Notes under the pieces: generated by a model
What the model saw: the letters and a program-made list of their open reading frames with translations, nothing else
What the model was told of the DNA's origin: nothing
Database searches by the model: none
Position numbers and translations under genes: made by a program
Shown: positions 33,984-48,517 of the stretch, in pieces
Position numbering within the stretch: position 1 is the stretch's first letter
Layout: every line of letters starts with the position of its first letter
Origin: Candidatus Rokuibacteriota bacterium
Lineage (GTDB): Bacteria > Methylomirabilota > Methylomirabilia > Rokubacteriales > CSP1-6
NCBI GenBank assembly: GCA_003220595.1
Contig: QHSZ01000023.1
Span: 3,271 to 67,270, forward strand
Length of the DNA: 64,000 bases
Reading direction: 5' to 3'

Positions 33984-34516
33984 CCTGTCGTCTCCGACAG
34001 GAGCTTCTCGACGTTCAGGCGAAAGGCCTCATCGGTGACGGCGCCCACGTGCTTGGCGCGGATCCGGCCCCGGCGGTCGATGAAGAACGTCTCCGGCACG
34101 CCGTAGACGCCGTAGTCCACGGAGACCTTCCCGGTCGTGTCCCGCGCGTTGGGGAAGCTCAGGCCGAAGTCGCGCGTGAACTTCTGCGCCGCCTCCAGCT
34201 TGTCCTGGATGTCCACGCCGATCACGACGACGCCCCGGTCGCGGTAGGCGCGCCAGTTCCGCTCGAGCACGGGCGCCTCCTCGTAGCACGCGGGATAGCA
34301 CCAGGACGCCCAGAAGTTGAGGACGACGACCTTGCCGCGCTGGGCCTCGAGCGCGAGCGGGGCGCCCTCGAGCGTCTGGAGCGCGAAGGCGCTCGCCGGC
34401 CGCCCGACGAGCGGCGAGGGGATGTCACGCGGGTTCACGCGGAAGCCGTACGCGAGCAGGGCCAGGACGGGCACCGCCGAGAGCGGGATGAGCCAGCGCA
34501 GGAGCCGCGGGGTCAC
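33980..34516 (-). CDS. ccmG: thiol:disulfide interchange protein DsbE/CcmG (TlpA-like thioredoxin)
   Basis: N-terminal TM helix and a WASWCYPAC active site. GTGA overlap with ccmF. Confidence 0.8.
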   Translation of the reverse strand: MTPRLLRWLIPLSAVPVLALLAYGFRVNPRDIPSPLVGRPASAFALQTLEGAPLALEAQRGKVVVLNFWASWCYPACYEEAPVLERNWRAYRDRGVVVIGVDIQDKLEAAQKFTRDFGLSFPNARDTTGKVSVDYGVYGVPETFFIDRRGRIRAKHVGAVTDEAFRLNVEKLLSETTG

Positions 34517-36456
34517 GCGGGCTTCTTCCGATCTGGAAGGATCGCGAGCAGGGCGCCCAGGGTGAGCACGGCGCCGCCGATCCAGATCCAGCTGACGAGA
34601 CGGTTGACCTGGAGCTTCACCGTGGCCTCCGAGCCGTCCCGGGCGAAGTCGCCGAGGACCAGGTAGACGTCCTCGCCGAAGCCGAGACGGTAGTCCACGC
34701 CGGCGATCGGTGACTGTTCCTGAGGGTAGAACTTCTTCGCGGGGCGGAGCACGGAGAGCACGCGCCCGTTCGAGACGGTGAACGCGCCCGCGACCTTGAA
34801 GTGATTCGACTCCTCGGTGGCCGTGAGCCCGTCGAAACGCACGCGGTACCCGGCGAGCTCGGCCGCCTCGCCGCGGCGGAGCGTCGTCTCGGTCTGCACC
34901 GACCACGCCTGCGAGCCGGTCACGCCCAGCGTGACGATCAGGATGCCGAGGTGGACGACGAAGCCGCCGTACCGCCGGTTGTGGCGGCGCAGGAGGCCGC
35001 CCATCGCGGGCAGGAGCCGCTCACCCATCCGGAGGCGCGCGCGCGTCGCGCGGGAGAAGTCCACCGCGATCGTGGCGGCGACGAAGACGGTGAGCGCCAG
35101 GGCTAGCACGGCGAGCGTCGAGCGGATGCCGAGGGCGGAGAAGAGCGCGGCCGCCGCGACGCCCACCGCGACGGGCCAGAGGAAGCTCCGCCGCAGGTTG
35201 TCGGGCGAGGCGCGTCGCCAGGCGATGAGCGGCCCCACGCCCATCAGGAAGATGAGCGCGAGGAAGAGCGGCACGTTGACCTGGTTGAAGAAGGGCGCGC
35301 CGACCGAGACCTTCACGCCGCGTACGGCCTCCGAGAGGAGCGGGAACACGGTGCCGAAGAAGACGGTGAAGGCCGCCGCGATGAGCAGGACGTTGTTCAG
35401 GAGAAACGCCGACTCGCGCGAGACGACCGAGTCGAGCTCGCCCTGGGCAGAGAGCGCGTCCCAGCGCCACGCCAGGAGGGCGAGCGCCGTGAGCAGCACG
35501 AGCGCGAGGAAGCTCAGGAAGAAGACGCCGATCGAGCCCTGGGTGAAGGCGTGGACCGAGGCGATCACGCCCGAGCGCGTCAGGAACGTGCCGAAGAGGG
35601 TGAGGCCGAAGGTGAGGATCACGAGCCAGAGGTTCCAGAGTTTCAGCATCCGCCGGCGCTCCTGGACCATCACCGAGTGCAGGAACGCGGTGGCCGTGAG
35701 CCACGGCATGAACGCCGCGTTCTCCACGGGGTCCCAGGCCCAGTACCCCCCCCAGCCGAGGACGTGGTAGCTCCACCAGCCGCCGATGAGCAGCCCGAGC
35801 GAGAGGAAGTACCACGCGATGATCGTCCAGCGCCGGGTCAGCGTGATCCACGCGTCGCCGACGCGTCCGGTGATCAGCGCGGCCAGCGCGAAGGCGAAGG
35901 GCACCGTCACGCCCGTGAAGCCGAGGTAGAGGGCCACCGGGTGCGTGATCATGCCCGTGTCCTCGAGCAGCGGGTTGAGGCCGCGGCCGTCGGCGGGCAC
36001 CGGGGTGAGGCGCGCGAAGGGCGGCGCCGCCACCGTGATGACGAGCAGGAAGAAGGCCATGACCGACAGCATCACGGTGAGGACCCACGGGTAGAGCTCG
36101 TGCGCGCTCTCGCGGTGGCGGAGGATCACGATGAGCGTGTAGAGCGCGAGCATCCAGGTCCACAGAATGATCGAGCCCTCGAGCGCCCCCCACACGCCCG
36201 TGATCCGATAGTAGAACGGCGTGCCGAGGTTCGTGTTGATGGCGACGTAGCGCACCGAGAAGTCGAAGATGAGGAAGGCGTACGTGAGGAGCGCGAAGCA
36301 GGCCGTCACCAGCACGAAAACGCCGAGCGCCGCGTGCTGGGCCGAGAGGACGAGCGCCGGGCGACCCGTGCGCGCACCCGTGGCCGCGGCCACGGCGCCC
36401 CAGAGCGCCAGGGCGAGAGCGACGATGGCCGCCGCGCTGCCGAGCTCGGGGATCAC
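34513..36456 (-). CDS. ccmF: cytochrome c-type biogenesis heme lyase CcmF
   Basis: 647 aa polytopic membrane protein with WWSYHVLGWGGYWAWDPVEN (WWD domain) and conserved His residues. GTG start preceded by a GGGGAAGGG ribosome-binding site; overlaps ccmE. Confidence 0.85.
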   Translation of the reverse strand: MIPELGSAAAIVALALALWGAVAAATGARTGRPALVLSAQHAALGVFVLVTACFALLTYAFLIFDFSVRYVAINTNLGTPFYYRITGVWGALEGSIILWTWMLALYTLIVILRHRESAHELYPWVLTVMLSVMAFFLLVITVAAPPFARLTPVPADGRGLNPLLEDTGMITHPVALYLGFTGVTVPFAFALAALITGRVGDAWITLTRRWTIIAWYFLSLGLLIGGWWSYHVLGWGGYWAWDPVENAAFMPWLTATAFLHSVMVQERRRMLKLWNLWLVILTFGLTLFGTFLTRSGVIASVHAFTQGSIGVFFLSFLALVLLTALALLAWRWDALSAQGELDSVVSRESAFLLNNVLLIAAAFTVFFGTVFPLLSEAVRGVKVSVGAPFFNQVNVPLFLALIFLMGVGPLIAWRRASPDNLRRSFLWPVAVGVAAAALFSALGIRSTLAVLALALTVFVAATIAVDFSRATRARLRMGERLLPAMGGLLRRHNRRYGGFVVHLGILIVTLGVTGSQAWSVQTETTLRRGEAAELAGYRVRFDGLTATEESNHFKVAGAFTVSNGRVLSVLRPAKKFYPQEQSPIAGVDYRLGFGEDVYLVLGDFARDGSEATVKLQVNRLVSWIWIGGAVLTLGALLAILPDRKKPA

Positions 36457-36890
36457 TGTCGCCCTTCCCCCTGGAGAGTTCGGATCAGATCCTTGCCGAG
36501 CGTGGTCCCGCCGTCGTGAGGCGCCTTGTACTCCTCGGAATGCTTGGCGAGGATGAGACTCGCCTTGAAGTAGCCGTCGGCCGTCCAGCTGCCCTCGACG
36601 ACCGCGCCGCGGCTCTCGCCGAAGAGGTCGGGAGGCGTGCCCTTGTGTCGCACAGGCACGGTCGCCTTGCCGTCGGAGAGCGCGAAGGACAGGTCGAGCG
36701 AGCGCGGCTCCCACCTGAGCGAGCCCGGCTGGACCAGTCCGCCGAGGCGGTAGGCCTTGCCGACGACCGGCGCCGCGCGGAGCTCGCTCGGCGTGACGAA
36801 GTACACCGCCGACTGGGTCACGCCCGCGTAGATCATGTACGCGAGCGCCGCGGCGATCACCGCACCGCCGGCGACGAACTTGCCTTTCAT
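36453..36890 (-). CDS. ccmE: cytochrome c-type biogenesis heme chaperone CcmE
   Basis: 145 aa with an N-terminal TM helix and an OB-fold. The C-terminal LAKHSEEY contains the conserved heme-binding His (HxxxY). Confidence 0.8.
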   Translation of the reverse strand: MKGKFVAGGAVIAAALAYMIYAGVTQSAVYFVTPSELRAAPVVGKAYRLGGLVQPGSLRWEPRSLDLSFALSDGKATVPVRHKGTPPDLFGESRGAVVEGSWTADGYFKASLILAKHSEEYKAPHDGGTTLGKDLIRTLQGEGRQ

Positions 36891-36936
36891 CGGCCCGAGC
36901 CGCGGCGCGACCCGGCTGCGTTCCGCATGGCGCGAT

Positions 36937-37059
36937 TCATTCCAATCGCGTCGGCGCGCTCATTTGCTTTTCGAGCCGGATGAGGCGCCGCCAGTAGCCG
37001 AAGAGCACCAGCGCGGCGAGCGCGTAGGCGGCGAGAACGAAGCCCCAGTTGTCGGGCAT
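36937..37059 (-). CDS. ccmD: heme exporter protein CcmD (~40 aa)
   Basis: MPDNWGFVLAAYALAALVLFGYWRRLIRLEKQM... is a single-TM peptide. Its ATG shares a nucleotide with the ccmC stop (TGATG). It is not in the ORF track because of its size. Confidence 0.6.
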   Translation of the reverse strand: MPDNWGFVLAAYALAALVLFGYWRRLIRLEKQMSAPTRLE

Positions 37060-37706
37060 CACGCCGCGGCCTCCGCCTCGAGTTGGAGCAGGCGCACGCG
37101 CTTCGCGAGGAAGTAGAGGTAGAGGAGCGAGAACGCCGCGAAGTTCACCAGGAGCGCCGCGACGATCACGCCAGGCATGCTACTCCCTCCCGGCCTCATG
37201 AGCGACGGCGGCTGGTGCAGCGTCCGCCACCAGTAGACCGAGAAGTGCACGAGCGGGATGTTGAGCGCCGCGACGACGCCGAGCACGGCGGCGTAGCGGG
37301 CGGCGCGGTCGCCTTCGTCGATCATACCGCGGAGCAGGAGATAGCCGAGGTACATGACGAAGAGGATCGAGACGCTCGTGAGGCGCGCGTCCCACGTCCA
37401 CCAGGCGCCCCAGGTGGGCTTCCCCCAGATCGACCCGGTCGCGATCGTGAGGCCCGTGAAGAGGACGCCGAGCTCGGCGGAGGCGTGGGCGACGTGGTCG
37501 GCGCGCTCGGCGCGGCGGGCCAGATAGACGATGGACGCCACGAACACGACCGCGAAGGCGACGTAGGCGACCCAGACGCTGGGCACGTGGAGGTACATGA
37601 TGCGCTGGACGTTGCCCTGCGTCGCCTCGCGCGGGGCGACGCCGAAGGCCATCACGAGGCCCGCGCCGAGCCCGATCGCCGCGAGCCATCCGAGCGCCCT
37701 CGTCAT
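37059..37706 (-). CDS. ccmC: heme exporter protein CcmC
   Basis: 215 aa, 6 TM segments, with WGxPTWGAWWTWDARLTS (tryptophan-rich WWD motif). Start at the internal VMTRALGWLAA. Confidence 0.85.
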   Translation of the reverse strand: MTRALGWLAAIGLGAGLVMAFGVAPREATQGNVQRIMYLHVPSVWVAYVAFAVVFVASIVYLARRAERADHVAHASAELGVLFTGLTIATGSIWGKPTWGAWWTWDARLTSVSILFVMYLGYLLLRGMIDEGDRAARYAAVLGVVAALNIPLVHFSVYWWRTLHQPPSLMRPGGSSMPGVIVAALLVNFAAFSLLYLYFLAKRVRLLQLEAEAAA

Positions 37707-38353
37707 GACTCGAGCAGGAAGTCGAAGGTGAGCACGCCCGCGGCGACGTACACGACGTCGGCCGCGGCGAGGAGCTTCAGCCAGTGCGCGACCGCCGAGA
37801 GGGGCTCGCCCAGCAGCACGGCCTCGGTCGCCTTCACGGTCGCGAGGAGGACCGGCACCTGGACGGGGAGCAGCAGCACCGGGAAGAGCAGCTCGCGCGC
37901 GCGTACCTGGGCGGTCATCGCCGCGAAGAGCGTGCCAACGGCGGCGAGGCCGAGCGTGCCGAGCGCCACGACCAGCGCGAGCGCCGGCAGGGCGCCCGCG
38001 AGGTCCACGTTGAAGAAGAAGGTGAACAGGACGAGCAGCAAGGTCTCGACGACGAGCATCAAGAGGACGTTTCCCGCGAGCTTGCCGACGTAGATGGCCG
38101 ACTTGTCGCCGGGCGCCAGGAGCAGCGCGTCCCAGCAGTCGTTCTCGCGCTCGAGCACGAAGGTGCGCCCGAGTCCGAGCAGGCCGGCCAGGACGAAGCC
38201 CAGCCAGAGGATGCCGGGGAGCGCCGCGGCGAGCCGCTCGCGGTCGGGGCCGAGCGTGAACTGGAAGACGAACAGGAGCAGGAGCGAGAAGAAGACGAGC
38301 GCGTTGAGCGTCTCCTTCGAGCGGCGCTCCACGAGGAGATCCTTGCGGACCAC
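37703..38353 (-). CDS. ccmB: heme exporter protein CcmB
   Basis: ...RKDLLVERRSKETLNALVFFSLLLLFVF... followed by 6 TM segments. The start codon is uncertain (a GTG near 38353 was chosen). Confidence 0.75.
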   Translation of the reverse strand: MVRKDLLVERRSKETLNALVFFSLLLLFVFQFTLGPDRERLAAALPGILWLGFVLAGLLGLGRTFVLERENDCWDALLLAPGDKSAIYVGKLAGNVLLMLVVETLLLVLFTFFFNVDLAGALPALALVVALGTLGLAAVGTLFAAMTAQVRARELLFPVLLLPVQVPVLLATVKATEAVLLGEPLSAVAHWLKLLAAADVVYVAAGVLTFDFLLES

Positions 38354-38376
38354 GGCCCACGCGCGCCGCGCGAAGA

Positions 38377-39096
38377 TCAGGCGCCGTCCTCCGTGTGCAG
38401 CCGGTACAGGCGTGCGATCTCCTCGGCGCCCATCGAGGCGCGAGGCGTGTCGAGCGCGATCGTGCGCGCGGCGAGGATCACGATGCGGTCGGCGAGGGCG
38501 AGCTCGCGGCCGAAGCTGTGCGTGGCCATCACGAGCGCGCCGCCCGCCGCTTTGAACGCCTCGAGGTACCCCTCGAGCCACTTCTTCGCGCGCTGGTCGA
38601 GCCCCGCGAAGGGCTCGTCGAGCAGCAGGACGCGCGGGCGGGACAGCACGAACCGCGCCAGCGAGAGTCGGCGCTTCATGCCGGCGGAGAACGTGCGCAC
38701 GCGCTCGCCCGCGAACCGCTCGAGCTCGACGGCCGCGAGGGCCCGCGCGAGCACGGCGCCGTCGGCGGCGAGGCCCGAGAGCGCGGTCCAGAATCGAAGA
38801 TTCTCGAGCGCGGTGAGGTCCTCGTAGACGTACGCGCCGTGGGCGACCAGGCCGATGTGCGGCCGCACGCGCTCGGGCGCCCGGGCGCAGTCGTGGCCGA
38901 GGACGAAGGCGGTGCCGCGCGAGGGGCGCGTGAGCGTCGCCAGGATCCGCAGGAGCGTCGTCTTGCCCGCACCGTTCGCGCCGAGGAGCGCGACGGCCTC
39001 GCCGGCGCGGACCTCCAGGCGCACGTCGGCCAGCACGACGTGGCCGGCGAACGCCTTGCGGAGGCCGGTCACACGAATGAGCGGATCAGCAGCCAT
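38377..39096 (-). CDS. ccmA: heme ABC exporter ATP-binding protein CcmA
   Basis: 239 aa with Walker A GANGAGKTT, signature FSAGMKRRL and Walker B LLLDEP. Confidence 0.85.
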   Translation of the reverse strand: MAADPLIRVTGLRKAFAGHVVLADVRLEVRAGEAVALLGANGAGKTTLLRILATLTRPSRGTAFVLGHDCARAPERVRPHIGLVAHGAYVYEDLTALENLRFWTALSGLAADGAVLARALAAVELERFAGERVRTFSAGMKRRLSLARFVLSRPRVLLLDEPFAGLDQRAKKWLEGYLEAFKAAGGALVMATHSFGRELALADRIVILAARTIALDTPRASMGAEEIARLYRLHTEDGA

Positions 39097-39135
39097 GTGT
39101 CGATCGGTTCATTCTCACGTAGCGCCGAGGACCGG

Positions 39136-39987
39136 TCAAGGAAGCGGTGCGGCGTCGCGGCGGCGCCCCCGCCCGTCGGTCCCCGGCCGCCTCTGCGGTT
39201 CAGGGTCGTGCGTGGAGAAGAACCGATGCAGCAGCAGGAGCACCGCCAGCATGTCCACCGCGCCGCCGCCGCCCCACATGACGACGCCACCCAGCGCCTG
39301 ATCCTCGAGCGGGGCGAGACCGCCGGGCCCGGGGGGCGCCGCATAGGAGGCGTAGAGGACGACCGGGCTCGCCGCGATCGAGAGCCCGAGGGCCGCGCTC
39401 TGGAGGGCGCCCGTGACGAGATAGACGACGCGCAGGCCGGGATGGACGGCTCGGCCGAAACGGGGCGCCGGACCGATCACGGGCCACCAGAACAGGATGG
39501 CGCCCGCGAAGAACGCCAGGTGCTCGAGGTCGTGGGCGACCCGATGGCCGAGCGCCCACTCGTACGCCCACGGGACGTGCCACAGCCACAGGACCCCCGC
39601 GTACGCACACCACGCGACGGGCATGCGCGTCAGGGCACGCCAGACGCTCCGCACGGGCGCGCCGCGCACGAGGAGCCGGCCGACCCGAATGCGGGCCCAC
39701 GTGGGCAGGGCCCAGAGGAGCGCCGCGAGCGGGTCGGCCAGGAGGAGGGCGGGCGCCGCGACGGCGATGAGGAGCATGTGCTGCGCCATGTGGGCGACGA
39801 AGCGGCGGTGCGCGAGGGCGTCGAGGGGGGAGAGCAGCGCCAGGGCGAGGCTCCCGAGGCCGGCCAGGGTGAGGGCGGGTCGCCACCACGCCACCCGCGG
39901 CCAGGCGCGCCGTGAAAGGCGCCACCACCCGGCTGCGTAGGCGACTCCCAGGAGCAGGAGCAGGACGAAGATTCCCGGCCGGTGCAT
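39136..39987 (-). CDS. cytochrome oxidase assembly factor, Caa3_CtaG/CopD-like membrane protein
   Basis: 283 aa polytopic protein with HMAQHMLLIAVAAPALLL and DQALGGVVMWGGGG motifs characteristic of CtaG (COG3336). Confidence 0.55.
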   Translation of the reverse strand: MHRPGIFVLLLLLGVAYAAGWWRLSRRAWPRVAWWRPALTLAGLGSLALALLSPLDALAHRRFVAHMAQHMLLIAVAAPALLLADPLAALLWALPTWARIRVGRLLVRGAPVRSVWRALTRMPVAWCAYAGVLWLWHVPWAYEWALGHRVAHDLEHLAFFAGAILFWWPVIGPAPRFGRAVHPGLRVVYLVTGALQSAALGLSIAASPVVLYASYAAPPGPGGLAPLEDQALGGVVMWGGGGAVDMLAVLLLLHRFFSTHDPEPQRRPGTDGRGRRRDAAPLP

Positions 39988-40181: not shown

Positions 40182-40376
40182 CTACTGACCCACCGCCAGG
40201 CCGGGCCCGAGACCGCCCCAGTACGTGAAGAGGTAGTAGATGCCCCAGACGGCGAGCACGGCGTAGACCACGAGCAGCCACTTGTTCACGATGCCGTGAT
40301 ACGCGCGGATCTCCCCGCGGGCGTATTCCTCGACGGCACCGTACCGCGGATGCTCCTCAGGTGCGCGCTCGGTCAT
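40182..40376 (-). CDS. small single-TM membrane protein (possible cbb3 oxidase accessory subunit)
   Basis: 64 aa. ...KWLLVVYAVLAVWGIYYLFTYWGG is a TM helix. It lies in the cco operon between ccoS and ctaG. Confidence 0.45.
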   Translation of the reverse strand: MTERAPEEHPRYGAVEEYARGEIRAYHGIVNKWLLVVYAVLAVWGIYYLFTYWGGLGPGLAVGQ

Positions 40377-40591
40377 GATCGCGGGGTCCGCGAGCCCGGC
40401 TCGTCCGTGGGTGGCCTGCGAGAGGAACCCGGGGCTTCGTCGCTCTCCTCCTCCACTTGGAGCACCCGGTACTTGATCGTCTCGACGTCACGGAACGCCC
40501 CGCTCACCGCGCCCCAGACGAAGGCGCTGAGGGCGGCGAGGCCCATGAGCACGGCGACGGCGAACGCGCCCAGGGTCAGGTGCTCGAGCAT
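40373..40591 (-). CDS. ccoS: cbb3-type cytochrome oxidase maturation protein CcoS/FixS-like
   Basis: MLEHLTLGAFAVAVLMGLAALSAFVWGAVSGAFRDVETIKYRVLQ matches the CcoS pattern (TM helix - FxW..SGxFxD - RVL). The start is placed at the internal ATG. Confidence 0.55.
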   Translation of the reverse strand: MLEHLTLGAFAVAVLMGLAALSAFVWGAVSGAFRDVETIKYRVLQVEEESDEAPGSSRRPPTDEPGSRTPRS

Positions 40592-40604
40592 CGCGGGGGC
40601 CTCC

Positions 40605-42260
40605 TCACTCCCGGACTCCGGGGTAGTAGACGCGCGGCTTCTTGCCATTGACCCGGGCCACGCCGGCCGCCTCGCGCTCCGGGTCGAGGGCCAGCCGCGG
40701 ATGGTCGGCGCGGACGTCCGGCGAATCGAGCGCCGCCTTGGTCTGCGGGGAGAGCTTGAGCTTCTCGCCCGTCAGCGGATCGGCCCAGGCCGAGAACGAG
40801 AGCACGAAGTACGAGATGGCCCAGCGCTCCGCGTCGTTCATCGAGTCGGCGAATGAGGGCATGGGGGTCCCGTCGAGTCCGAGCGTCATCGTACGATAGA
40901 TGTCGGCCACGTGGGAGCCGCCCTTGAACTGGCCCTTCGTGAAGTCCGCGGGACGGATCGGGAGCTTGAGGTCGTCCTTGAGCTGATTGGCCGAAGGCCC
41001 GTCGCCCTTGCCGGTATCGCCGTGGCACTCCCAGCACTTGGCCTTCACGTAGAGGTCCTTTCCCCGGGCGAGGAGTGCGGGCGTGGCCGCCGGCGGCGGC
41101 GGCAGCACGAGCGGCGGCTCCGGCTTCTCCTCCTTCCAGCGCGTGGAGAAGGTCTTGATGTACGAGATGAGCGCGAGCCGTGTCTTGTCGGGGAGCTCAT
41201 GCCACGTCGGCATCGCCGTCCAGCGGACGCCGCGCGTGACCGTGCGGAAGAGGTCGCCGTCGGTCGGCAGAGACCCGGACGGCGTCGAGCGGAACTTGAA
41301 GGCGCCGATCGTGAAGTCGCGCGGCCGGGGGAAGAGGAAGGTGGCGGCGAGCCCGTTGCCGTCGCCCTTCGGCCCGTGGCAGCCGATGCAGTGCTCTGCG
41401 TATTCCTCCTTGCCACGGGCGACCAGGTCGGCGCTCGGCGGAATGCCCATCACGGACAGCGCCACGTTCTGCGGCTCGAAGACCTCCCGCCACGCCCCGC
41501 GATTCGTCCCGAGCTTCTGGACGTAGCCGACGAGCGAGACCAGCTCCTTCGTCGGGACCACCAACAGGACGGAGGTGAGGGCGGGCGGCGTGTCGGCGAA
41601 GGGCGTCAGGTCGAGGACGGGCGTGCCGTCGATCGGGAGCTCGCCGTCGGGGCGCGGGCGTACGAACGTGAGCCCCGTCTCGTTGGGGAAGAGGAGCACC
41701 GGCCTGTCCTTGTTCAGCGTGAAGTATCGCGAGAGAGCCGGTGTCGCCTCGAGCGCGAGCCCCTCGCCGCCCTTGCGCACGGGGACCCGGGCCTGCTCGA
41801 AGAGCCACTTGAAGCTCGGCATGATGGACTCGGGCACCACCAGCCGCGGATCCCAGTGGTGGGCGTAGTGCCAGTCGTCGGCGTACTTGAGCCCCACGCG
41901 CGTCAGGTCCGGTCCGATGCGCCGGGTGGAGAAGAGGTGCGGGAGGTCGTAGGCATACTCGCCGGCCTCGGAGACGGGACCCCAGCGCAGCTCCTCGCTG
42001 GCGACCGGCCGCACGTACTGGCTGTGGCAGTACCAGCACCCCTCGCGGATGTACACCGCGCGCCCGAGCTGCTCCCGCGGCGTGTAGTCGCTCGACTCGT
42101 ACCGCACCCACTTGACCTCGCCGAGGTCCGTTCGCACGGCGCGGCTCACGTGCTTCGCGCGCGACTCGGGCAGCATGGCGGGGAGAAAGCCTTGCACGAA
42201 GAGCGCGAGCGTCACGAAGAAGAACCCGGCCCCGATCGCCAGCGACTTGATCGATCTCAT
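40605..42260 (-). CDS. ccoOP: cbb3-type cytochrome c oxidase CcoO-CcoP fusion (monoheme subunit II fused to diheme subunit III)
   Basis: 551 aa. N-terminal TM helix plus EGCWYCHSQYVRP, the CcoO heme motif. The C-terminal half has two further CxxCH sites (CIGCHGPKGDG and CWECHGDTGKGDG) with a CcoP-like cyt c fold. Confidence 0.75.
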   Translation of the reverse strand: MRSIKSLAIGAGFFFVTLALFVQGFLPAMLPESRAKHVSRAVRTDLGEVKWVRYESSDYTPREQLGRAVYIREGCWYCHSQYVRPVASEELRWGPVSEAGEYAYDLPHLFSTRRIGPDLTRVGLKYADDWHYAHHWDPRLVVPESIMPSFKWLFEQARVPVRKGGEGLALEATPALSRYFTLNKDRPVLLFPNETGLTFVRPRPDGELPIDGTPVLDLTPFADTPPALTSVLLVVPTKELVSLVGYVQKLGTNRGAWREVFEPQNVALSVMGIPPSADLVARGKEEYAEHCIGCHGPKGDGNGLAATFLFPRPRDFTIGAFKFRSTPSGSLPTDGDLFRTVTRGVRWTAMPTWHELPDKTRLALISYIKTFSTRWKEEKPEPPLVLPPPPAATPALLARGKDLYVKAKCWECHGDTGKGDGPSANQLKDDLKLPIRPADFTKGQFKGGSHVADIYRTMTLGLDGTPMPSFADSMNDAERWAISYFVLSFSAWADPLTGEKLKLSPQTKAALDSPDVRADHPRLALDPEREAAGVARVNGKKPRVYYPGVRE

Positions 42261-42276: not shown

Positions 42277-43668
42277 TCACGCCGACCGCTGGGCGAGCGA
42301 GCCCTTCATCAGGGTGTAGACCACGAACGAGATGCCGAGGTCCATCGAGATCCCGGTGAAGGTCCGCACCCACCAGTACGGGCGGATCGCGGTGACCGTT
42401 TCGAGGAACTCGCTCTGCGCCATCAGCATGAAGCCCTGCTGGAGCCCCTGGGCACTGAGGACGAGCCCCATCGCCGAGATACCCAGCGTGATGAGCCAGA
42501 ACCCCCAGTTCCCGAGTTTGAAGCTCCAGATCGGAGAGCCCGTGATCCGCGGCCAGACGTAGACCGCGCCGGCGATGGCCCAGATGACGAACGTGCCGAA
42601 GACGGTGAGGTGCGAGTGGGAGATCACGAAGTCGGTGAAGTGGGTCGGCTGCTGGAGCGCGCGCAGCGCCTCCAGCGAGCCCTGGAGGCACCCGAGGAGG
42701 TACATGATGGACCCGATGATCAGGAACTTCGCCGGGAGGTTCCGACCGAACTCCTGCCACTGGCCGAGCATGGTGCCGAAGAAGTTCTGGAGCACCGTCC
42801 ACACCGGGATGATCAGCATCATGGAGGAGACGATGGCGATCGTCTCGGCCCAGTCGGCGATCGGCGAGTAGAGGTAGTGGTGGATGCCGACGAACGGGTA
42901 AAAGAACGCGAGCGACCAGAACCCGATCAGCGACAGCTTGTGACTGTAGATGGGGTTCCGGACGCTCGCGGGCAGGAAGTAGTAGATCAGCACGTAGCCG
43001 GCCGGCGTGATCCAGAGCCCGACGACGTAGTGGATGAACAGGCCGTGCCAGGCCGCGTTGTTGATACCCGGGATGTTGTACGGGCCCAGGATGAGGAGGA
43101 CGAGGTTCACGTCCGTCCAGATGAAGGCCGCGATGAGATACCACAGGGAGACGTAGAGCGGCGCCTCCCGGCGGTTCTTGATCGTCACCAGGAACTGCAC
43201 GGTCAGGGCGAGGACCGCCAGGAAGATGACGATGACGTTGACCAGTGCGAACTCCCCGGCCTCCCAGCCCCGGTTGAAGCCGGCGGCGAGGAGGATGACG
43301 GCCACGGCCAGGTTCAGGTTCCAGACCCAGAGCAGCCCATGGCTCCAGCGCTCGTTCCACAGCCTCACGCCGCAGAGGCGCGGCACGATGTAGTGGCAGA
43401 GGCCAATGAAGAGCGTGGAGAACGCGCCCCAGATCACGCCGTTGACGTGGATCGGGCGGAGCCGGCCGAAGGTGAGCCAGGCCTGGTCGCCCAGGAATTC
43501 CGGGTACGTGAACTTGGTGGACAGGACGACGCCCAGCGTCGGGAAGAAGAGGAGCCAGAAGAAGCCCCAGGCGAGCCACCGCCGGATCAGCGCCCGATCG
43601 ATGACGTCGTCGTTCAGGCGCTGCGCCTCGGCGACCCGCGCCTCCTGAACGCCTCCGGTACCGGCCAT
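42277..43668 (-). CDS. ccoN: cbb3-type cytochrome c oxidase subunit I CcoN
   Basis: 463 aa heme-copper oxidase subunit I with 12 TM segments, conserved His ligands (HVNGVIWG, HHYLY, SHSH) and the cbb3-specific YIVPRL...WHGLF pattern. Confidence 0.85.
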   Translation of the reverse strand: MAGTGGVQEARVAEAQRLNDDVIDRALIRRWLAWGFFWLLFFPTLGVVLSTKFTYPEFLGDQAWLTFGRLRPIHVNGVIWGAFSTLFIGLCHYIVPRLCGVRLWNERWSHGLLWVWNLNLAVAVILLAAGFNRGWEAGEFALVNVIVIFLAVLALTVQFLVTIKNRREAPLYVSLWYLIAAFIWTDVNLVLLILGPYNIPGINNAAWHGLFIHYVVGLWITPAGYVLIYYFLPASVRNPIYSHKLSLIGFWSLAFFYPFVGIHHYLYSPIADWAETIAIVSSMMLIIPVWTVLQNFFGTMLGQWQEFGRNLPAKFLIIGSIMYLLGCLQGSLEALRALQQPTHFTDFVISHSHLTVFGTFVIWAIAGAVYVWPRITGSPIWSFKLGNWGFWLITLGISAMGLVLSAQGLQQGFMLMAQSEFLETVTAIRPYWWVRTFTGISMDLGISFVVYTLMKGSLAQRSA

Positions 43669-43715: not shown

Positions 43716-44555
43716 TCATGAGAAGCGGATCGGATGCACGGCCTCGAATCGCTGCCCGCGGTTGTTTGCGAGGACCACCCGCAACAGGTCCTCTCCCGGC
43801 GCGCGGAGCCTGAACGCGATCCAGGGATTATCGCTGAGCGCCGAGGTCAGCGTGAAGCGGCTGATCGGCTGGTCTCCGTAGAAGACGTCCATCTGGCTCA
43901 GGTAGAGGGGGTCCCCCGCCTGGACGAACTTCCCCTCCCGGACCTCCAGGCCCGTTCGGCTCGGATGCTTGGTCTTGATCTGGATGTCGATCGTCTGGTG
44001 AGGGCCGATGCTGCCTTCGGCGATCAGCTGCGGTATCCGGATCGTGGGCGGACCGATCTCGTCGGGGCCCGTCCTGCCTGGCGGCGGCGCGGTCCCCGCA
44101 CAGCCACCGCCGCCCTCCGGGATCGTGATGGACCGCGTGCTGTGCCAGCGAACGTGGCGGCTGCACTCGGCCGTCGCCACGACGTCGGAGGCGCCACGAT
44201 CGAGGCGGATCTGGAAGGCGAGATAGACCTGGCCGTTCAGCGGCGTGAAGTGGAAGACGCCCTTCAGGGGAACGGGATCGCGCTCGTTCATGACGCTGAC
44301 GCTGCTCACGTAGTGACCGGGTTCCATCGGATGGGACATCTCGACGGTGACCGGGACCTTGGCTCCGTTGCTCGTGAAGACGGGCAGCGTGAGCGCGAGC
44401 GCATCGGGATCGTCGCCGGGTGAGCGCGTCGGCTCGCCGCGCCCCCAGGCGCCGCGAGGTCCTCCCGCCGCGATCAGCCCCACGGCCGCCGGCAGCGCGC
44501 CCAGGAAGCTCCGCCTGGACACGAGCCGCGGCCGTGAGGCGACGTGCGGTGTCAT
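43716..44555 (-). CDS. soxYZ: Tat-exported SoxY-SoxZ fusion (thiosulfate-oxidation carrier protein)
   Basis: Twin-arginine signal SRRSFLGALPAAVGLIAAG. The SoxY-like domain (...AKVPVTVEMSHPMEPGHYVSSVSVMNERDPVPLKGVFHFTP...) ends in the carrier-Cys motif GGGGC. A Pro/Gly linker follows, then a SoxZ-like Ig fold (...TIDIQIKTKHPSRTGLE...SQMDVFYGDQPISRFTLT...). Confidence 0.6.
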   Translation of the reverse strand: MTPHVASRPRLVSRRSFLGALPAAVGLIAAGGPRGAWGRGEPTRSPGDDPDALALTLPVFTSNGAKVPVTVEMSHPMEPGHYVSSVSVMNERDPVPLKGVFHFTPLNGQVYLAFQIRLDRGASDVVATAECSRHVRWHSTRSITIPEGGGGCAGTAPPPGRTGPDEIGPPTIRIPQLIAEGSIGPHQTIDIQIKTKHPSRTGLEVREGKFVQAGDPLYLSQMDVFYGDQPISRFTLTSALSDNPWIAFRLRAPGEDLLRVVLANNRGQRFEAVHPIRFS

Positions 44556-44577: not shown

Positions 44578-45039
44578 TCAGTGTCGGCCGGGATCGAGCT
44601 TGGACCCTCGGTTCGACCAGTAGATGTAGGCCTCCAGCGCCTTCATCGCGTCCCCGTCGGGGTCGATCTTCACCCCCTCGTTCGGCTTCTCGATGCACCA
44701 GTTGATCATGTCGCGCAGCGTCGCGAACTTGTTGATCTGCTCCTGGAACTTCGGGAACTCGTAGGGATGGTTGTCCGAGGCGAACGGATGGCACATGGCG
44801 CACGCCATCCCCGTCTTGGACAGCGTGACGCCGAGCCGCTTCTCGGTGGCGCCGTCCCCGTGGAAGAGCAGATCTCCGACCTTCACCTGCTCCATGAACA
44901 CGTCGTCGAAAGCCTTGAGCTGGTCAGGCGTGTGTTTCTCCTTGTGGGCCAGCGCCCGGTCCGTGCCCGAGGTCGCGAGCAGCAGAAGCAGGCCCAGGCC
45001 GACACCCAGCGCCGTCGACGCGTAGCGAGTCCTCTTCAT
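44578..45039 (-). CDS. periplasmic monoheme c-type cytochrome
   Basis: Signal peptide MKRTRYASTALGVGLGLLLLLATSG and a single CAMCH heme motif. A GGAGGAGGG ribosome-binding site lies upstream. Confidence 0.65.
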   Translation of the reverse strand: MKRTRYASTALGVGLGLLLLLATSGTDRALAHKEKHTPDQLKAFDDVFMEQVKVGDLLFHGDGATEKRLGVTLSKTGMACAMCHPFASDNHPYEFPKFQEQINKFATLRDMINWCIEKPNEGVKIDPDGDAMKALEAYIYWSNRGSKLDPGRH

Positions 45040-45077
45040 CGCCCTCCTCCCTCCCTGGGTGCGAGCCCCGCCGGTGC

Positions 45078-46193
45078 TCATTTGTAGGCGCCGTAGTACG
45101 GCCACTCGCGATCGGCGATGCGCGGTTGTAGCGTCTGGTTGATGTTGTCGGCGCACCCGGAGTCCCACGGCGCCTCCGCCAGGATGTCCTTCCGCCACAT
45201 CACGTACTCGTTCTCGAGCTTCTCGGCCGCGCTCACGGTGAGCCGGGACCAGCCGACGCCGTCGAAGTGGTCGCCGGGATCGACCCGCACCAGGCACCGG
45301 GTCAGCGCGGGCACGCCCTCGGGCGCGTAGGGCCACGTCCACGAGGTGGCCAGCATGCCGATCGAGCGCATCTTTCCGAGCTCGTTGTACAGCACCTGAT
45401 GCGTGTGACCGTGGACGTTGGTGACGTTGGTGTAGGCCTTGAGGACCTCGTGCACCTCGCGCCAGTCACGCACCCAGAAGTTCCAGGGCGGGTAGTACTC
45501 ATAGAGCGGGTTGTGGCTGAAGATGATCACGGGCTTGTCCTTGGGCCAGCTCCCGAGCGTGCGGTTCAGCCACTCGAGCTGATCACGGCCGACGCCGGCC
45601 CACGCCCCGGCCACCGAGCCGTCGAGCGTCGCCATGTGGCCCATCCGCTCCTTGGCCGTCATCTTCTTGGCGGTCCAGTAGTCGGGACCGCGGCTGACCG
45701 TGTCGAGGCCGACGAAGCGCACGCCCTTGTGGTCGAAGGTCCAGTTCGGTGCGCCGAAGAGCTGCCGCCACTTGGCGCCCATGTCGAAGTACCAGTCATG
45801 CTCTCCGGGGATGTACACCTTCTTGATCTTCAGCTCCTTGAGGATGTCGTTGCCGAGGCCCAGCTCGACCGGATCGCCGAGCTGGGCTAGATCACCCCCG
45901 TGGATCAGGAAGTCGGCCGGGGGCGACATGGCCTGCACGTCCTTGACCGCGCGGGTGGCCTTGTCGACGAACCGGGTGTTGACGTCCTTGGGATAGAGAT
46001 GGTTGTCGGAGATCCAGGCGAACTTGAACGCTTCGGCGCCGAACGCCACGTCGAGCGTGTTGATGAGGGGGAACCACCCGTACGTCGCCGCGCCCGCGGC
46101 CCCCGCGAGCACCGATTTGTGGAGGAAGATGCGGCGCGTGATACCGAGCGAGGGATCGGGCCGCTCGCCCGGTCGCCTCAGCTCCCGGTCCAT
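45078..46193 (-). CDS. Tat-exported calcineurin-like metallophosphoesterase
   Basis: Twin-arginine leader ITRRIFLHKSVLAGAAGAATYG. Metallophosphoesterase motifs GDLAQ / GEHD / FSHNP / HGHTHQ. Confidence 0.65.
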   Translation of the reverse strand: MDRELRRPGERPDPSLGITRRIFLHKSVLAGAAGAATYGWFPLINTLDVAFGAEAFKFAWISDNHLYPKDVNTRFVDKATRAVKDVQAMSPPADFLIHGGDLAQLGDPVELGLGNDILKELKIKKVYIPGEHDWYFDMGAKWRQLFGAPNWTFDHKGVRFVGLDTVSRGPDYWTAKKMTAKERMGHMATLDGSVAGAWAGVGRDQLEWLNRTLGSWPKDKPVIIFSHNPLYEYYPPWNFWVRDWREVHEVLKAYTNVTNVHGHTHQVLYNELGKMRSIGMLATSWTWPYAPEGVPALTRCLVRVDPGDHFDGVGWSRLTVSAAEKLENEYVMWRKDILAEAPWDSGCADNINQTLQPRIADREWPYYGAYK

Positions 46194-46352
46194 CTCGCGC
46201 CGCGTCGCTCGGATCTCGCCGGACGCGCGCGCCTTCCGCCACCAAGCCCTCCGAGACGTTTCTCTGGCGAGCTCGAGTCGATCATGGTCGTCCACTGCGG
46301 TCGCCTCCTTCCCACCGCCAGGCAGTCGTGCCGGACGGAAGCCAGTGTGGCC

Positions 46353-47096
46353 CTACTTCTTCAGCTCCACCGTAACGGGCACCACCTCCTTGGCGTTCAC
46401 GCTCACGGGAATCTCGACCTCGCCCGCGTACTCCTGCCACGTCACGAGCGTATAGGAGCCGGGCGGGACGTCCTTGATCGTGAACGTCCCGTCCTTCGCC
46501 GTCACCGCGTAGTAGGGGTTGTCCGCGACGTAGACCCAGCCGAGCATCCAGCCGTGGGCGTCGCACTCTACGCGGACGAGCCCCGGCTTCTTGAGCGGCC
46601 GCCTGATCCGCTGGTCCTGGTTCGGCAGGGCCACGTTGAACGCAGTGAGCTTGCCGTAGAAGCCGTGCGTGTTGTGGAGGACCGGATCCGAGTTGACGAT
46701 CTCGAAGTCGCCGGCCGGGATGATCTGCACGTGCGGTCGAAAGTCGCACTTGACGTTGTCGATGTGCGGGACGCCCGCAGCCTTCTCCCAACCCTTGCCC
46801 TTCTCGACGGATTTCAGATAGACGACCGCGTCCTCGACCGCCTTATCGGGGCCGACCAGGATCTGATCCACCTCGCGCACGCCGCTGCCGCACACCTCCC
46901 GATCCTTGGTCGGGATGACCTTTCGCTTGGGCGGCGCGCTCCCCTGGAAGACCACCTTGCCCTTGATGGTGCCGCCGCCGCTGACGTCCACGACCTCGTA
47001 CGGCAGTGCGGGAGTGGCCACGCCGATCACCAACGCCACGACCGCGAGCGCCACGAACGTGAGCAGCGCCGTCGCCATGCGGGTACGCGTCCTCAC
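46353..47096 (-). CDS. secreted cupredoxin-like (type-1 copper) domain protein
   Basis: Signal peptide. Candidate copper ligands are His in HNTHGF and the ECDAHGWM block (Cys-x2-His-x2-Met spacing, as in plastocyanin/amicyanin), followed by a C-terminal Ig-like beta-sandwich. Confidence 0.4.
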   Translation of the reverse strand: MRTRTRMATALLTFVALAVVALVIGVATPALPYEVVDVSGGGTIKGKVVFQGSAPPKRKVIPTKDREVCGSGVREVDQILVGPDKAVEDAVVYLKSVEKGKGWEKAAGVPHIDNVKCDFRPHVQIIPAGDFEIVNSDPVLHNTHGFYGKLTAFNVALPNQDQRIRRPLKKPGLVRVECDAHGWMLGWVYVADNPYYAVTAKDGTFTIKDVPPGSYTLVTWQEYAGEVEIPVSVNAKEVVPVTVELKK

Positions 47097-47127: not shown

Positions 47128-47949
47128 TCAGAGATGGGCGGACGGGCGCGGCAATGGCTCGAGCTTCTCCTCGGGCGCGTGACACACGTGACAGGCCCGC
47201 TCTCCGATCTCCGAGACGAGCGTGTAGCCGGCGCCCTGGGACCGCCAGACGACCACGTCGTAGCCGCGGTGGCTCACCACCTTGAACCGCGGCTTCTCCC
47301 TCAGCTGGAGGCGGCGGTAGGCCTCCTCCGGGATGATGAAGAGCGAGACGTTGTTGCCGTCGAGCTGATACTCGAGCGCCGCCACCTCGATCTCTCCGAG
47401 GTGCGAGATCCGCCCTCCGAGGAAGCGCAGGCCCTCGGTCTTCAGATCCGGGAGACTCACGTTGAAGGTGAGCCGCTGCCTGAACCACTCCTCGGCCGCC
47501 TTCGGCGACACGTCCCTGATGTCGGGCGGCAGGAGGTTGCGGACCAGCTTCTGGTGCTGCTCCACCGCGGCCCCCGCGAGCTCGGGGAGCGTGATCCGGG
47601 TACCGAGGTACGCTTTCAGTGCCATCCCGGCGCCCAGACCAACGGCGACCAGAAGCGCGGCGGCGATCGCGAGAACGAGGGGCGTCAGCCGGCGCCGTCC
47701 GTGCCTTGCCCGCTGGCCATGGCCGAGGTCCCGGAGCAGCGTGGCCACGTGCTCGCGGACCCGCTCGGGGGCTGGGTCCGGGCGCAACCGCTCCCCGTAC
47801 GCTTCCCGGAACGCGACCTCGAAGTCGACGAGCCGTCGACAGGCGGTGCAGTGCGCCAGATGCGTGTCGACCTGGTCCCGCAGCTCCGGCGTCAGCTCCC
47901 CGTCGACGTAGGGAAACAGCTTGGATTTCGCCGTACTACAGTCCATCAC
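47128..47949 (-). CDS. anti-sigma factor (ZAS-type zinc-binding, membrane-spanning)
   Basis: N-terminal H-x3-C-x2-C (HLAHCTACRRL), a central TM helix, and a periplasmic C-terminal domain. It overlaps the 3' end of the ECF sigma gene. Confidence 0.65.
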   Translation of the reverse strand: MMDCSTAKSKLFPYVDGELTPELRDQVDTHLAHCTACRRLVDFEVAFREAYGERLRPDPAPERVREHVATLLRDLGHGQRARHGRRRLTPLVLAIAAALLVAVGLGAGMALKAYLGTRITLPELAGAAVEQHQKLVRNLLPPDIRDVSPKAAEEWFRQRLTFNVSLPDLKTEGLRFLGGRISHLGEIEVAALEYQLDGNNVSLFIIPEEAYRRLQLREKPRFKVVSHRGYDVVVWRSQGAGYTLVSEIGERACHVCHAPEEKLEPLPRPSAHL

Positions 47950-48517
47950 TTCTCACGCCCACGCCTTTCTCGCCGGGCCGCTGGGGGAGCTCCACGAGAT
48001 ACGTTCGAAGCAAGTTCCTGCCACGGTAGAGCCGAGACATGACGGTGCCGATCGGACGGCTCACGATGGCCGCGATCTCGCGGTACGCCAGCCCCTCGAT
48101 GTCGCGAAGCTCGACCACTTCCCGGAGGAGCGGGGGCAGGCGGCGGATCGCCTCACGGACCTGCTCGACGGTCTCGCGCCGAACCAGGATGTCCTCCGGG
48201 GCGAGCGGGATTGAACAGAGGGGACTTTCCATGGAGACCACTGGCTCCACTTCCTCGTCGCGCCCCAGAGGCTCTTCCGAGGGCCGCACCCGCTGCCGTC
48301 GCTGACGGTCGATCTGAGCATTCCTGATGATCGTGAAGATCCACGGCTTAAAGCTCTGGGCCCGGTCGAACGTGTGGAAGCCGTCGTAGGCGCGCACGAG
48401 GCTTTCCTGGAGGAGGTCTTCGGCGGCCTCGACCTGACGCGTCAGCACGAGGGCGTAGTTGTACAGGGAATCGAGATACTTTCGGACAAGATCCTGAAAC
48501 TCGGACCCCCTGTCCAC
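47936..48517 (-). CDS. ECF-type RNA polymerase sigma factor (sigma-70 family, group 4)
   Basis: 193 aa with region 2 (LVLTRQVEAAEDLLQESLVRAY...FKPWIFTIIRNAQIDRQR) and region 4 (LREVVELRDIEGLAYREIAAIV...GTVMSRLYRGRNLL). Confidence 0.85.
   Translation of the reverse strand: MDRGSEFQDLVRKYLDSLYNYALVLTRQVEAAEDLLQESLVRAYDGFHTFDRAQSFKPWIFTIIRNAQIDRQRRQRVRPSEEPLGRDEEVEPVVSMESPLCSIPLAPEDILVRRETVEQVREAIRRLPPLLREVVELRDIEGLAYREIAAIVSRPIGTVMSRLYRGRNLLRTYLVELPQRPGEKGVGVRSDGL

Follow-up and report, generated by a model that had tools for sequence, protein, structure and literature searches.

We analyzed a fused cytochrome gene in a 64,000-nucleotide stretch of DNA from Candidatus Rokuibacteriota bacterium (contig QHSZ01000023.1 of assembly GCA_003220595.1; hereafter the window, in which position 1 is the first letter). 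The gene (40605..42260, minus strand) lies downstream of ccoN, which encodes the catalytic subunit I of a cbb3-type (C-family) oxidase, and its product joins a CcoO domain and two further cytochrome c domains in one polypeptide. We read this protein as subunit II of a divergent cbb3-type oxidase, in which a dihaem module of the type of the Kuenenia stuttgartiensis protein Kustc0457 would replace CcoP functionally without being its orthologue, and on the sequence and structure comparisons described here we give this reading a probability of roughly 75%. cbb3 oxidases are high-affinity terminal oxidases of many microaerobic bacteria, and their mechanism is understood almost entirely from the proteobacterial CcoNOQP enzymes.

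The fused reading frame and its conservation

In the list of open reading frames (ORFs), 40605..42260 on the minus strand is one uninterrupted frame with an ATG start that encodes 551 amino acids followed by a stop codon. The fused gene starts 16 nucleotides after the stop codon of ccoN. Its parts are the following (all on the minus strand).

40605..42260, minus: gene of the fused subunit, CcoO plus dihaem cytochrome c (ORF list, Pfam, homologous clusters)
42174..42248, minus: N-terminal membrane anchor, approximately amino acids 5–29, KSLAIGAGFFFVTLALFVQGFLPAM (hydrophobic stretch, FixO alignment, predicted helix)
41466..42260, minus: complete CcoO/FixO domain, amino acids 1–265 (FixO Pfam, NF011055, 3mk7_B, FixO alignment)
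42006..42044, minus: CcoO haem-binding motif EGCWYCHSQYVRP, amino acids 73–85 (motif scan)
40791..41438, minus: dihaem cytochrome c module assigned to the Kustc0457 type, amino acids 275–490 (6h5l_B sequence match, Foldseek)
40608..40790, minus: C-terminal tail, amino acids 491–551 (invariant columns in homologues)

Pfam searches with the fused protein matched FixO (PF02433, E 1.1e-46, 159.5 bits, cut-off 29.6), Cytochrom_C (PF00034, E 2.4e-22, two stretches) and Cytochrome_CBB3 (PF13442, E 2.3e-20, two stretches), all far above chance level. A motif scan found exactly 3 CXXCH sites, which are CWYCH at amino acid 75, CIGCH at 291 and CWECH at 409, and the anchor was modelled by AlphaFold2 as a single helix (amino acids 2–29). 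The original prediction, made from the letters of the window, had described a membrane-anchored subunit with three haem motifs in one continuous frame after ccoN, and the ORF, the Pfam matches and the motif scan confirm this description. The motifs that it named (EGCWYCHSQYVRP, CIGCHG, and CWECHG) were all recovered by the scan.

Because the G+C content of the window is 65–75%, long spurious ORFs abound in other frames, and it was worthwhile to ask whether a sequencing or assembly artefact had merged ccoO with an adjacent cytochrome gene. Unlike spurious long ORFs, the frame of the fused gene is backed by domain matches and by homologues. A protein database search returned 3214 relatives, and the length of the best 120 clusters (71–100% identity) was examined. 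These proteins are 545–553 amino acids long, with one exception of 524 amino acids that is labelled partial. In each of them FixO is accompanied by two cytochrome c domains, and the named members belong to Candidatus Rokubacteria or Methylomirabilota.

The fusion was also followed in a genome scan that used one genome per species and found at least 578 genomes whose relatives show EGCWYCH and DDWHYAH, the motifs of the subfamily. From the best 80 of these matching genomes come the 80 related loci used throughout this work, in which 444–551 of the 551 residues were matched in one frame (at least 500 in 79 of the 80); a contig end truncates the shortest match. Identity is 62–88% in the Rokubacteria of this set, which also includes Binatia, Tectomicrobia/Entotheonella, Acidobacteriota, Gemmatimonadota, and SAR324, and 50–54% in cultured Proteobacteria, exemplified by Ralstonia pickettii RAL3 (complete chromosome), Pseudothauera rhizosphaerae, Rhizobium sp., and Bradyrhizobium erythrophlei GAS478. 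The fusion was found as well on Entotheonella and Porifericomitaceae chromosomes, on the chromid of Rhizobium gallicum IE4872, and on pSymA of Sinorhizobium meliloti, where the PGAP annotation gives a single 554-amino acid coding sequence labelled 'subunit II'. The order of ccoN followed by the fusion is the same in nearly all 80 related loci.

The comparisons speak against an artefact at several levels. More than 120 clusters of 545–553 amino acids from independent samples keep the frame uninterrupted, and it is intact in the 80 independent genomes, in pSymA, and in the R. gallicum chromid. Furthermore, the junction of the two parts, at 41440..41480, has an almost invariant sequence among homologues (GTNRGAWREVFEPQ; …YVQKLGTNRGAWREVFEPQ…). 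A frameshift or assembly error is thus ruled out by the single frame and by the junction being kept in many independent genomes, and we assign to it next to no probability. Altogether, these sequences indicate that the fusion is natural and widespread, occurring in hundreds of bacterial genomes.

Identity of the CcoO part and of the dihaem module

The original prediction had proposed alignment to proteobacterial CcoO and CcoP as a check, and the outcome differed between the two halves of the protein. The first half matched over its full length: amino acids 1–265 align with FixO of Rhizobium leguminosarum (fixNOQP locus L082) and form a complete CcoO that comprises the membrane anchor, the haem motif C75-WY-C78-H79, the axial Met147 (IMPSF), and the C-terminal Y(V/L)Q(K/M)LGT helix. 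This helix reads YVQKLGT at approximately amino acids 246–252 and is followed by a short linker and then by the cytochrome domains. The solved CcoO of Pseudomonas stutzeri (3mk7_B) matches amino acids 58–156, including CWYCH and IMPSF, with an E-value of 5.4e-31. All 13 positions of EGCWYCHSQYVRP are invariant across 11 homologues, Trp76 is nearly invariant (90% or more) across 33 homologues, and Met147, Met350, and Met467 are invariant in the aligned homologues.

An AlphaFold2 model of the fused protein had a mean predicted local distance difference test (pLDDT) score of 63.9, with values of approximately 60 to 87 in the dihaem region and low values after amino acid 530. Between the CcoO haem core and the C-terminal helix, amino acids 150–240 (41541..41811, minus strand) form a small beta-rich domain in this model (pLDDT 80–88). 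A related CcoO-cytochrome fusion of 571 amino acids (P0131) has an EF-hand match at amino acids 160–177, in the counterpart of the beta-rich segment.

The second half of the protein contains two class-I cytochrome c domains. The first haem is assigned to CIGCH (amino acids 291–295) with Met350 and the second to CWECH (amino acids 409–413) with Met467. Two such domains, each with a CXXCH, are CcoP-like but generic to many dihaem cytochromes. The original prediction had taken this part for the equivalent of CcoP, which would make the gene a true fusion of ccoO and ccoP, in which the dihaem domain would descend from CcoP and both the intervening ccoQ and the anchor of CcoP would have been lost. 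The domain count agrees with such an origin, as do the matches to the Pfam model named Cytochrome_CBB3, though this model is generic, and the fact that no separate ccoP was seen. The ccoP equivalog model TIGR00782 also matched (E 1.5e-10), but with 40.9 bits against a cut-off of 179.95 and only over amino acids 394–489, that is, the second domain.

Comparison with protein structures gave a different picture. Searched against the sequences in PDB, amino acids 278–489 match residues 6–218 of 6H5L chain B over 212 residues (224 bits, E 2.2e-65), and the alignment pairs the two CXXCH motifs and the two Met-Pro ligand motifs of the module with those of the chain. The solved CcoP chains (8snh_G, 8smr_G, 3mk7_C, and 9g83_v) reached at most 19 bits (12.6–19 bits, E 0.0065–0.6), and their matches were limited to the surroundings of the haem motifs. 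The BLASTP comparison with R. leguminosarum CcoP yielded 28.5 bits and aligned only single-domain stretches around the haem-binding motifs. No Pfam match to the FixP_N anchor was found on the fused polypeptide, and a FixP_N-like anchor, if real, is encoded by a separate gene (orf64, see below). In agreement with the sequence match, the top Foldseek match of the AlphaFold2 model was 6h5l_B (E 4.8e-16, TMt 0.87, root-mean-square deviation of 3.1 Å over 220 columns, 44% identity), and CcoP chains were absent from the best 50 of the 64 Foldseek matches. Foldseek recognised only the dihaem part of the model, which shares with 6h5l_B the fold and the arrangement of the two domains, at the moderate confidence that the model has in this region.

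The entry 6h5l_B bears the title 'Kuenenia stuttgartiensis reducing HAO-like protein complex Kustc0457/Kustc0458'. Kustc0457 is the dihaem cytochrome c subunit of an HAO-like nitrite reductase complex; its two six-coordinate haems join the surface haem of every HAO-like subunit, so that the haem circuit of the partner enzyme is extended (PMC8042395). An octahaem HAO-like partner is absent in the window, which has four ORFs of at least 80 amino acids with a CXXCH; except for the fusion, none of them has more than one such motif.

To follow the module beyond this gene family, we searched 1.84 billion cluster representatives exhaustively with HMMER and found it at 40–55% identity in many architectures. 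It occurs as stand-alone proteins of approximately 250 amino acids, joined to an EB_dh haem-b domain (P0158), joined to c7-type multihaem domains (P0125), and joined to CcoO in several divergent clusters (P0122, P0147, and P0149). Triple fusions of CcoN, CcoO, and the dihaem module in one polypeptide were found as well (P0127 of 971 amino acids and P0166 of 999 amino acids). Since the same module is joined to varied redox domains, it behaves as a portable wire.

The scores place the module near Kustc0457 and far from CcoP, which argues that an unrelated dihaem module was joined to CcoO and that the gene did not originate by fusion of ccoO to ccoP. The PDB, BLASTP, NCBIfam, and Foldseek comparisons led us to reject orthology of the module with CcoP, so that equivalence by descent, as assumed in the original prediction, did not hold up, and the occurrence of the same module in many unrelated architectures is a further point against a ccoO-ccoP fusion, which we regard as very unlikely. 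These comparisons indicate that the added domain is a portable dihaem wire recruited onto CcoO and not a diverged CcoP.

Neither Kustc0457 nor CcoO has a counterpart of the tail that follows the module (amino acids 491–551), and the PDB alignment stops at amino acid 489. The tail contains the conserved motifs DPLTG, HPR, and YPG, and residues D494, P495, L496, T497, G498, P521, and R522 are invariant.

The partner CcoN and the small genes of the oxidase operon

The three genes that accompany the fused gene in the oxidase operon are listed below.

42277..43668, minus: ccoN, catalytic subunit I of a divergent cbb3 (C-family) oxidase, 463 amino acids (COX1, E 1.1e-71)
40373..40648, minus: CcoS/FixS-like maturation protein (PF03597, E 2.7e-5; TIGR00847, 29.5 bits against a cut-off of 28.35)
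40182..40376, minus: orf64, 64-amino acid single-helix membrane protein, encoded by the second gene after the fusion (conserved in related loci)

The best PDB matches of the window CcoN were the CcoN chains of cbb3 oxidases (163 bits), with E-values of 1e-45 to 1e-47 for 9g6b_A and 3mk7_A. The histidines that bind haem b, haem b3, and CuB, together with the tyrosine of helix VII, align with 9g6b_A. Five of these histidines (His74, 213, 263, 351, and 353) and Tyr257 are invariant in 75 subfamily sequences, and the sixth ligand, His264, was read from the pairwise alignment of the window protein to 9g6b_A alone, outside the count across loci. The helix-VII tyrosine, which forms the cross-link, is the signature of C-family O2 reductases, a family defined by the ligand set plus this tyrosine (P. 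stutzeri numbering). One position departs from the known enzymes. The window CcoN has Gln329, and a glutamine is found in 73 of 73 subfamily loci, where R. leguminosarum CcoN and 9g6b_A (P. stutzeri) have a glutamate. The replaced residue is presumably E323 of P. stutzeri, close to the proximal histidine of haem b3, and its change could alter the properties of this haem.

These features bear on the question of whether the enzyme reduces O2 at all. It might instead have evolved from the C family towards a different substrate, such as nitric oxide (NO), with the dihaem extension serving that chemistry. Such a function would be compatible with the low equivalog score of CcoN (given below), with the glutamine for a conserved glutamate in every subfamily member compared, and with the position of the cluster beside unusual periplasmic redox genes and not beside ccoGHIS. 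Opposed to it are the invariance of the haem and CuB histidines that were checked and of the helix-VII tyrosine, the score of CcoN against cbb3 CcoN, which far exceeds that against NorB (31 bits, E 1.4e-6), and the presence of a CcoS maturation gene. We therefore judge a substrate other than O2 to be unlikely.

Canonical CcoP, CcoQ, CcoG, and FixH were sought by tblastn with R. leguminosarum queries. None was found in the 64-kb window, which gave only weak hits, the best of them inside the fused gene. The 80 related loci, examined to a distance of 6 kb from the fusion, had none either. The absence of a separate full-length ccoP or ccoQ, which had been proposed for the window, therefore holds for the window and extends to the related loci.

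The ccoS-like gene keeps its position in nearly all of the 80 related loci. As listed, its ORF overlaps the 3' end of the fusion by 44 nucleotides; since the ccoS matches in the related loci mostly begin at approximately residue 20, translation probably starts at Met20 (40591). The gene follows the fusion immediately, as part of the structural operon and not of a ccoGHIS cluster.

The next gene, orf64, is present in 74 of the 80 related loci, and the arrangement ccoN, fusion, ccoS, orf64 is preserved among them. Its motif is close to E-Y-x-G-G-x-I-x4-G-x-(V/I)-N-x-W-L-L-x-V-Y…W…Y-Y…Y-W-G-G-L-G-P-G. A profile of orf64 found 1781 clusters in a large protein database, all annotated 'hypothetical protein' and including Cupriavidus and Bradyrhizobium, and gave only chance-level matches in PDB, among which CcoP was not recovered. 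Eighteen of 37 orf64 orthologues matched FixP_N (PF14715), the anchor domain at the N-terminus of CcoP, at E < 0.1 (best 4.9e-5), and every other family was matched by at most 4. With hhalign, orf64 aligned in register with CcoP residues 22–53 at an E-value of 0.003 but with a probability of only 10%. We also considered orf64 as a candidate CcoQ and rejected it, because its hhalign comparison with CcoQ of R. leguminosarum did not align the conserved part in a meaningful way. We consider orf64 a probable small membrane subunit of the oxidase, possibly derived from, or mimicking, the CcoP anchor.

Several results weigh against the reading of the fused protein as subunit II of a cbb3-type oxidase with a functional replacement for CcoP. 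CcoN scores 202 bits against the ccoN equivalog model, below its cut-off of 583, and the CcoO part scores 139.2 bits against the canonical ccoO equivalog TIGR00781 (cut-off 200.65); the match to NF011055, which covers amino acids 55–253, is likewise below its cut-off (154.6 bits against 218). Because both CcoN and CcoO fall below the NCBIfam equivalog cut-offs, we place them in a divergent cbb3 clade. Owing to the glutamine at position 329, the properties or the substrate of CcoN could differ from those of a textbook cbb3 oxidase. In the AlphaFold2 model, the CcoO haem core has a pLDDT below 50, and the model is too uncertain for the geometry between haems. Finally, the orf64 of the window matches FixP_N only weakly (15.2 bits, below the cut-off of 24.9), and its relatives are only stand-alone proteins of 65–95 amino acids without Pfam domains and with no link to full-length CcoP.

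If the fused protein is subunit II of such an oxidase, electrons from a periplasmic donor would enter the tethered dihaem module, the donor plausibly being the co-encoded SoxA-like cytochrome or the cupredoxin-like protein described below. They would then cross the two His/Met haems of the module to the haem c of CcoO and continue to haem b and to the haem b3-CuB site of CcoN, where O2 would be reduced. In this arrangement, orf64 might occupy the membrane position that helices of CcoP or CcoQ normally fill. The electron path and its direction, the contacts between subunits, the structural role of orf64, and the reduction of O2 by this enzyme are here deduced from sequence.

Gene neighbourhood and relation to known systems

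Genes on both sides of the oxidase operon encode further periplasmic redox and assembly proteins.

39136..39987, minus: CtaG assembly factor of the caa3 type (Caa3_CtaG, E 1.7e-55; Pfam), downstream of the fusion
43716..44555, minus: fused SoxY-SoxZ-like protein, between the SoxA-like cytochrome gene and ccoN
44578..45342, minus: SoxA/TsdA-like monohaem cytochrome, with a probable start at approximately residue 102
45078..46295, minus: metallophosphoesterase with a twin-arginine translocation (TAT) signal (MPE405), in the upstream block
46353..47096, minus: cupredoxin-like protein with a CarboxypepD_reg domain (orf247), in the upstream block
47128..48517, minus: zinc-binding-type anti-sigma factor and extracytoplasmic function (ECF) sigma factor, directly upstream of the cluster

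On the downstream side, ctaG is followed on the same strand by ccmA, ccmB, ccmC, ccmE, and ccmF, and the ctaG-ccm block spans 34513..39987 (minus strand). The ccm genes encode the machinery that attaches haem to periplasmic cytochromes c (System I). These System I maturation genes are located right behind a gene whose product needs three haem attachments.

Upstream of ccoN, the order is SoxYZ-like protein, SoxA/TsdA-like cytochrome, metallophosphoesterase, cupredoxin-like protein, anti-sigma factor, and ECF sigma factor, and the last two may regulate the cluster. Between its two domains the SoxYZ-like protein has a GGGGCAG motif that resembles the carrier-arm cysteine motif of SoxY. By tblastn, its gene was found next to ccoN mainly in loci of the Rokubacteria type and not in most proteobacterial ones. 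The SoxA/TsdA-like cytochrome has CAMCH and, in the motif NWCIEKPN, a cysteine that is invariant across 35 loci. The catalytic haems of SoxA and TsdA are ligated by histidine and cysteine, and with the invariant cysteine this suggests that the haem of this cytochrome may be catalytic and that the protein is not a simple carrier. For the other two proteins, the PDB searches returned only weak generic matches, to a metallophosphoesterase for MPE405 (E 0.004) and to a CuA or cupredoxin domain for orf247 (E 6.5e-4).

Across phyla, many of the 80 related loci share the block formed by orf247, the metallophosphoesterase, the SoxA-like cytochrome, ccoN, the fusion, ccoS, and orf64, and the R. gallicum IE4872 chromid has this block too. 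This recurrence across phyla suggests a donor system dedicated to the oxidase. A broader interpretation, which we advance tentatively and consider more doubtful than probable, is that the triheme CcoO marks a distinct, phylum-spanning class of cbb3-like oxidases that is hard-wired to its own periplasmic donor system, the genes of which lie just upstream. Further marks of this class may be the Gln-bearing CcoN, the lack of CcoP, CcoQ, CcoG, and CcoH, and the stand-alone FixP_N-like mini-subunit. Its donor system may consist of the TAT metallophosphoesterase, the SoxA/TsdA-like cytochrome with its invariant cysteine, and the cupredoxin-like protein, joined in Rokubacteria by the SoxYZ-like carrier. 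The dihaem domain would then serve as the docking wire in a hitherto undescribed respiratory module that leads from a substrate to O2, the substrate oxidised being possibly a sulfur compound.

In the open-access literature we found no paper on the triheme CcoO, on a Kustc0457-type origin, on orf64, or on the cluster, which does not prove that they are undescribed. Ducluzeau et al. reportedly noted in 2008 that CcoP is not universal outside Proteobacteria. The fusion is a real, uncharacterised variant of a known enzyme, and its members are public by the hundreds under the automatic annotation 'subunit II'. As this label says nothing more, genome inventories that look for ccoP could score such oxidases as incomplete. 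A cytochrome domain joined to a cbb3 subunit will not, on its own, surprise specialists, and the gene-cluster context is more promising than the fusion itself. The family suggests that CcoP, the subunit through which electrons enter, can be replaced by an unrelated dihaem wire joined to CcoO. It is widespread in soil lineages (Rokubacteria/Methylomirabilota, Acidobacteriota, and Tectomicrobia) and occurs also in cultured Rhizobium, Sinorhizobium, Ralstonia, Cupriavidus, and Bradyrhizobium. Because the cluster is present in genetically tractable rhizobia, the roles of the dihaem module, of orf64, and of the Glu-to-Gln change are directly testable.

Three known systems can be compared with that of the window. 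It resembles the canonical CcoNOQP/FixNOQP oxidases (P. stutzeri 3MK7/5DJQ; R. leguminosarum L082) in that ccoN is followed by a membrane-anchored CcoO domain with the same haem region, Met ligand, and C-terminal helix. The total of three c-type haems outside CcoN is also the same, the metal ligands and the tyrosine of CcoN are kept, and CcoS is present. Unlike the canonical enzymes, the window system has no separate genes for CcoP and CcoQ, and its two extra haems are on the CcoO polypeptide and belong to another cytochrome family. Its CcoN has Gln329 in place of the glutamate, ccoS is within the structural operon, and there is no ccoG or ccoH nearby. The module resembles Kustc0457 (6H5L chain B) over the full 212 residues of the dihaem fold and has the same two haem motifs and two Met-Pro motifs. 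However, it is covalently joined to CcoO whereas Kustc0457 is a free subunit, its partner is a haem-copper oxidase and not an octahaem HAO, and it is followed by an extra conserved tail of 60 amino acids. Fusions of cbb3 subunits are already catalogued in NCBIfam as PRK14485 (CcoN-CcoO) and PRK14486 (CcoO-cytochrome c). The latter (NF011054, bifunctional cbb3 subunit II/cytochrome c) represents the same kind of event and is the best NCBIfam match of the window protein (E 9.9e-54). Nevertheless, with 182.8 bits against a cut-off of 447 the window protein is not a member of this family, whose 294-amino acid model is too short to hold CcoO plus two further haem domains, while the protein of the window adds two haems and a tail.

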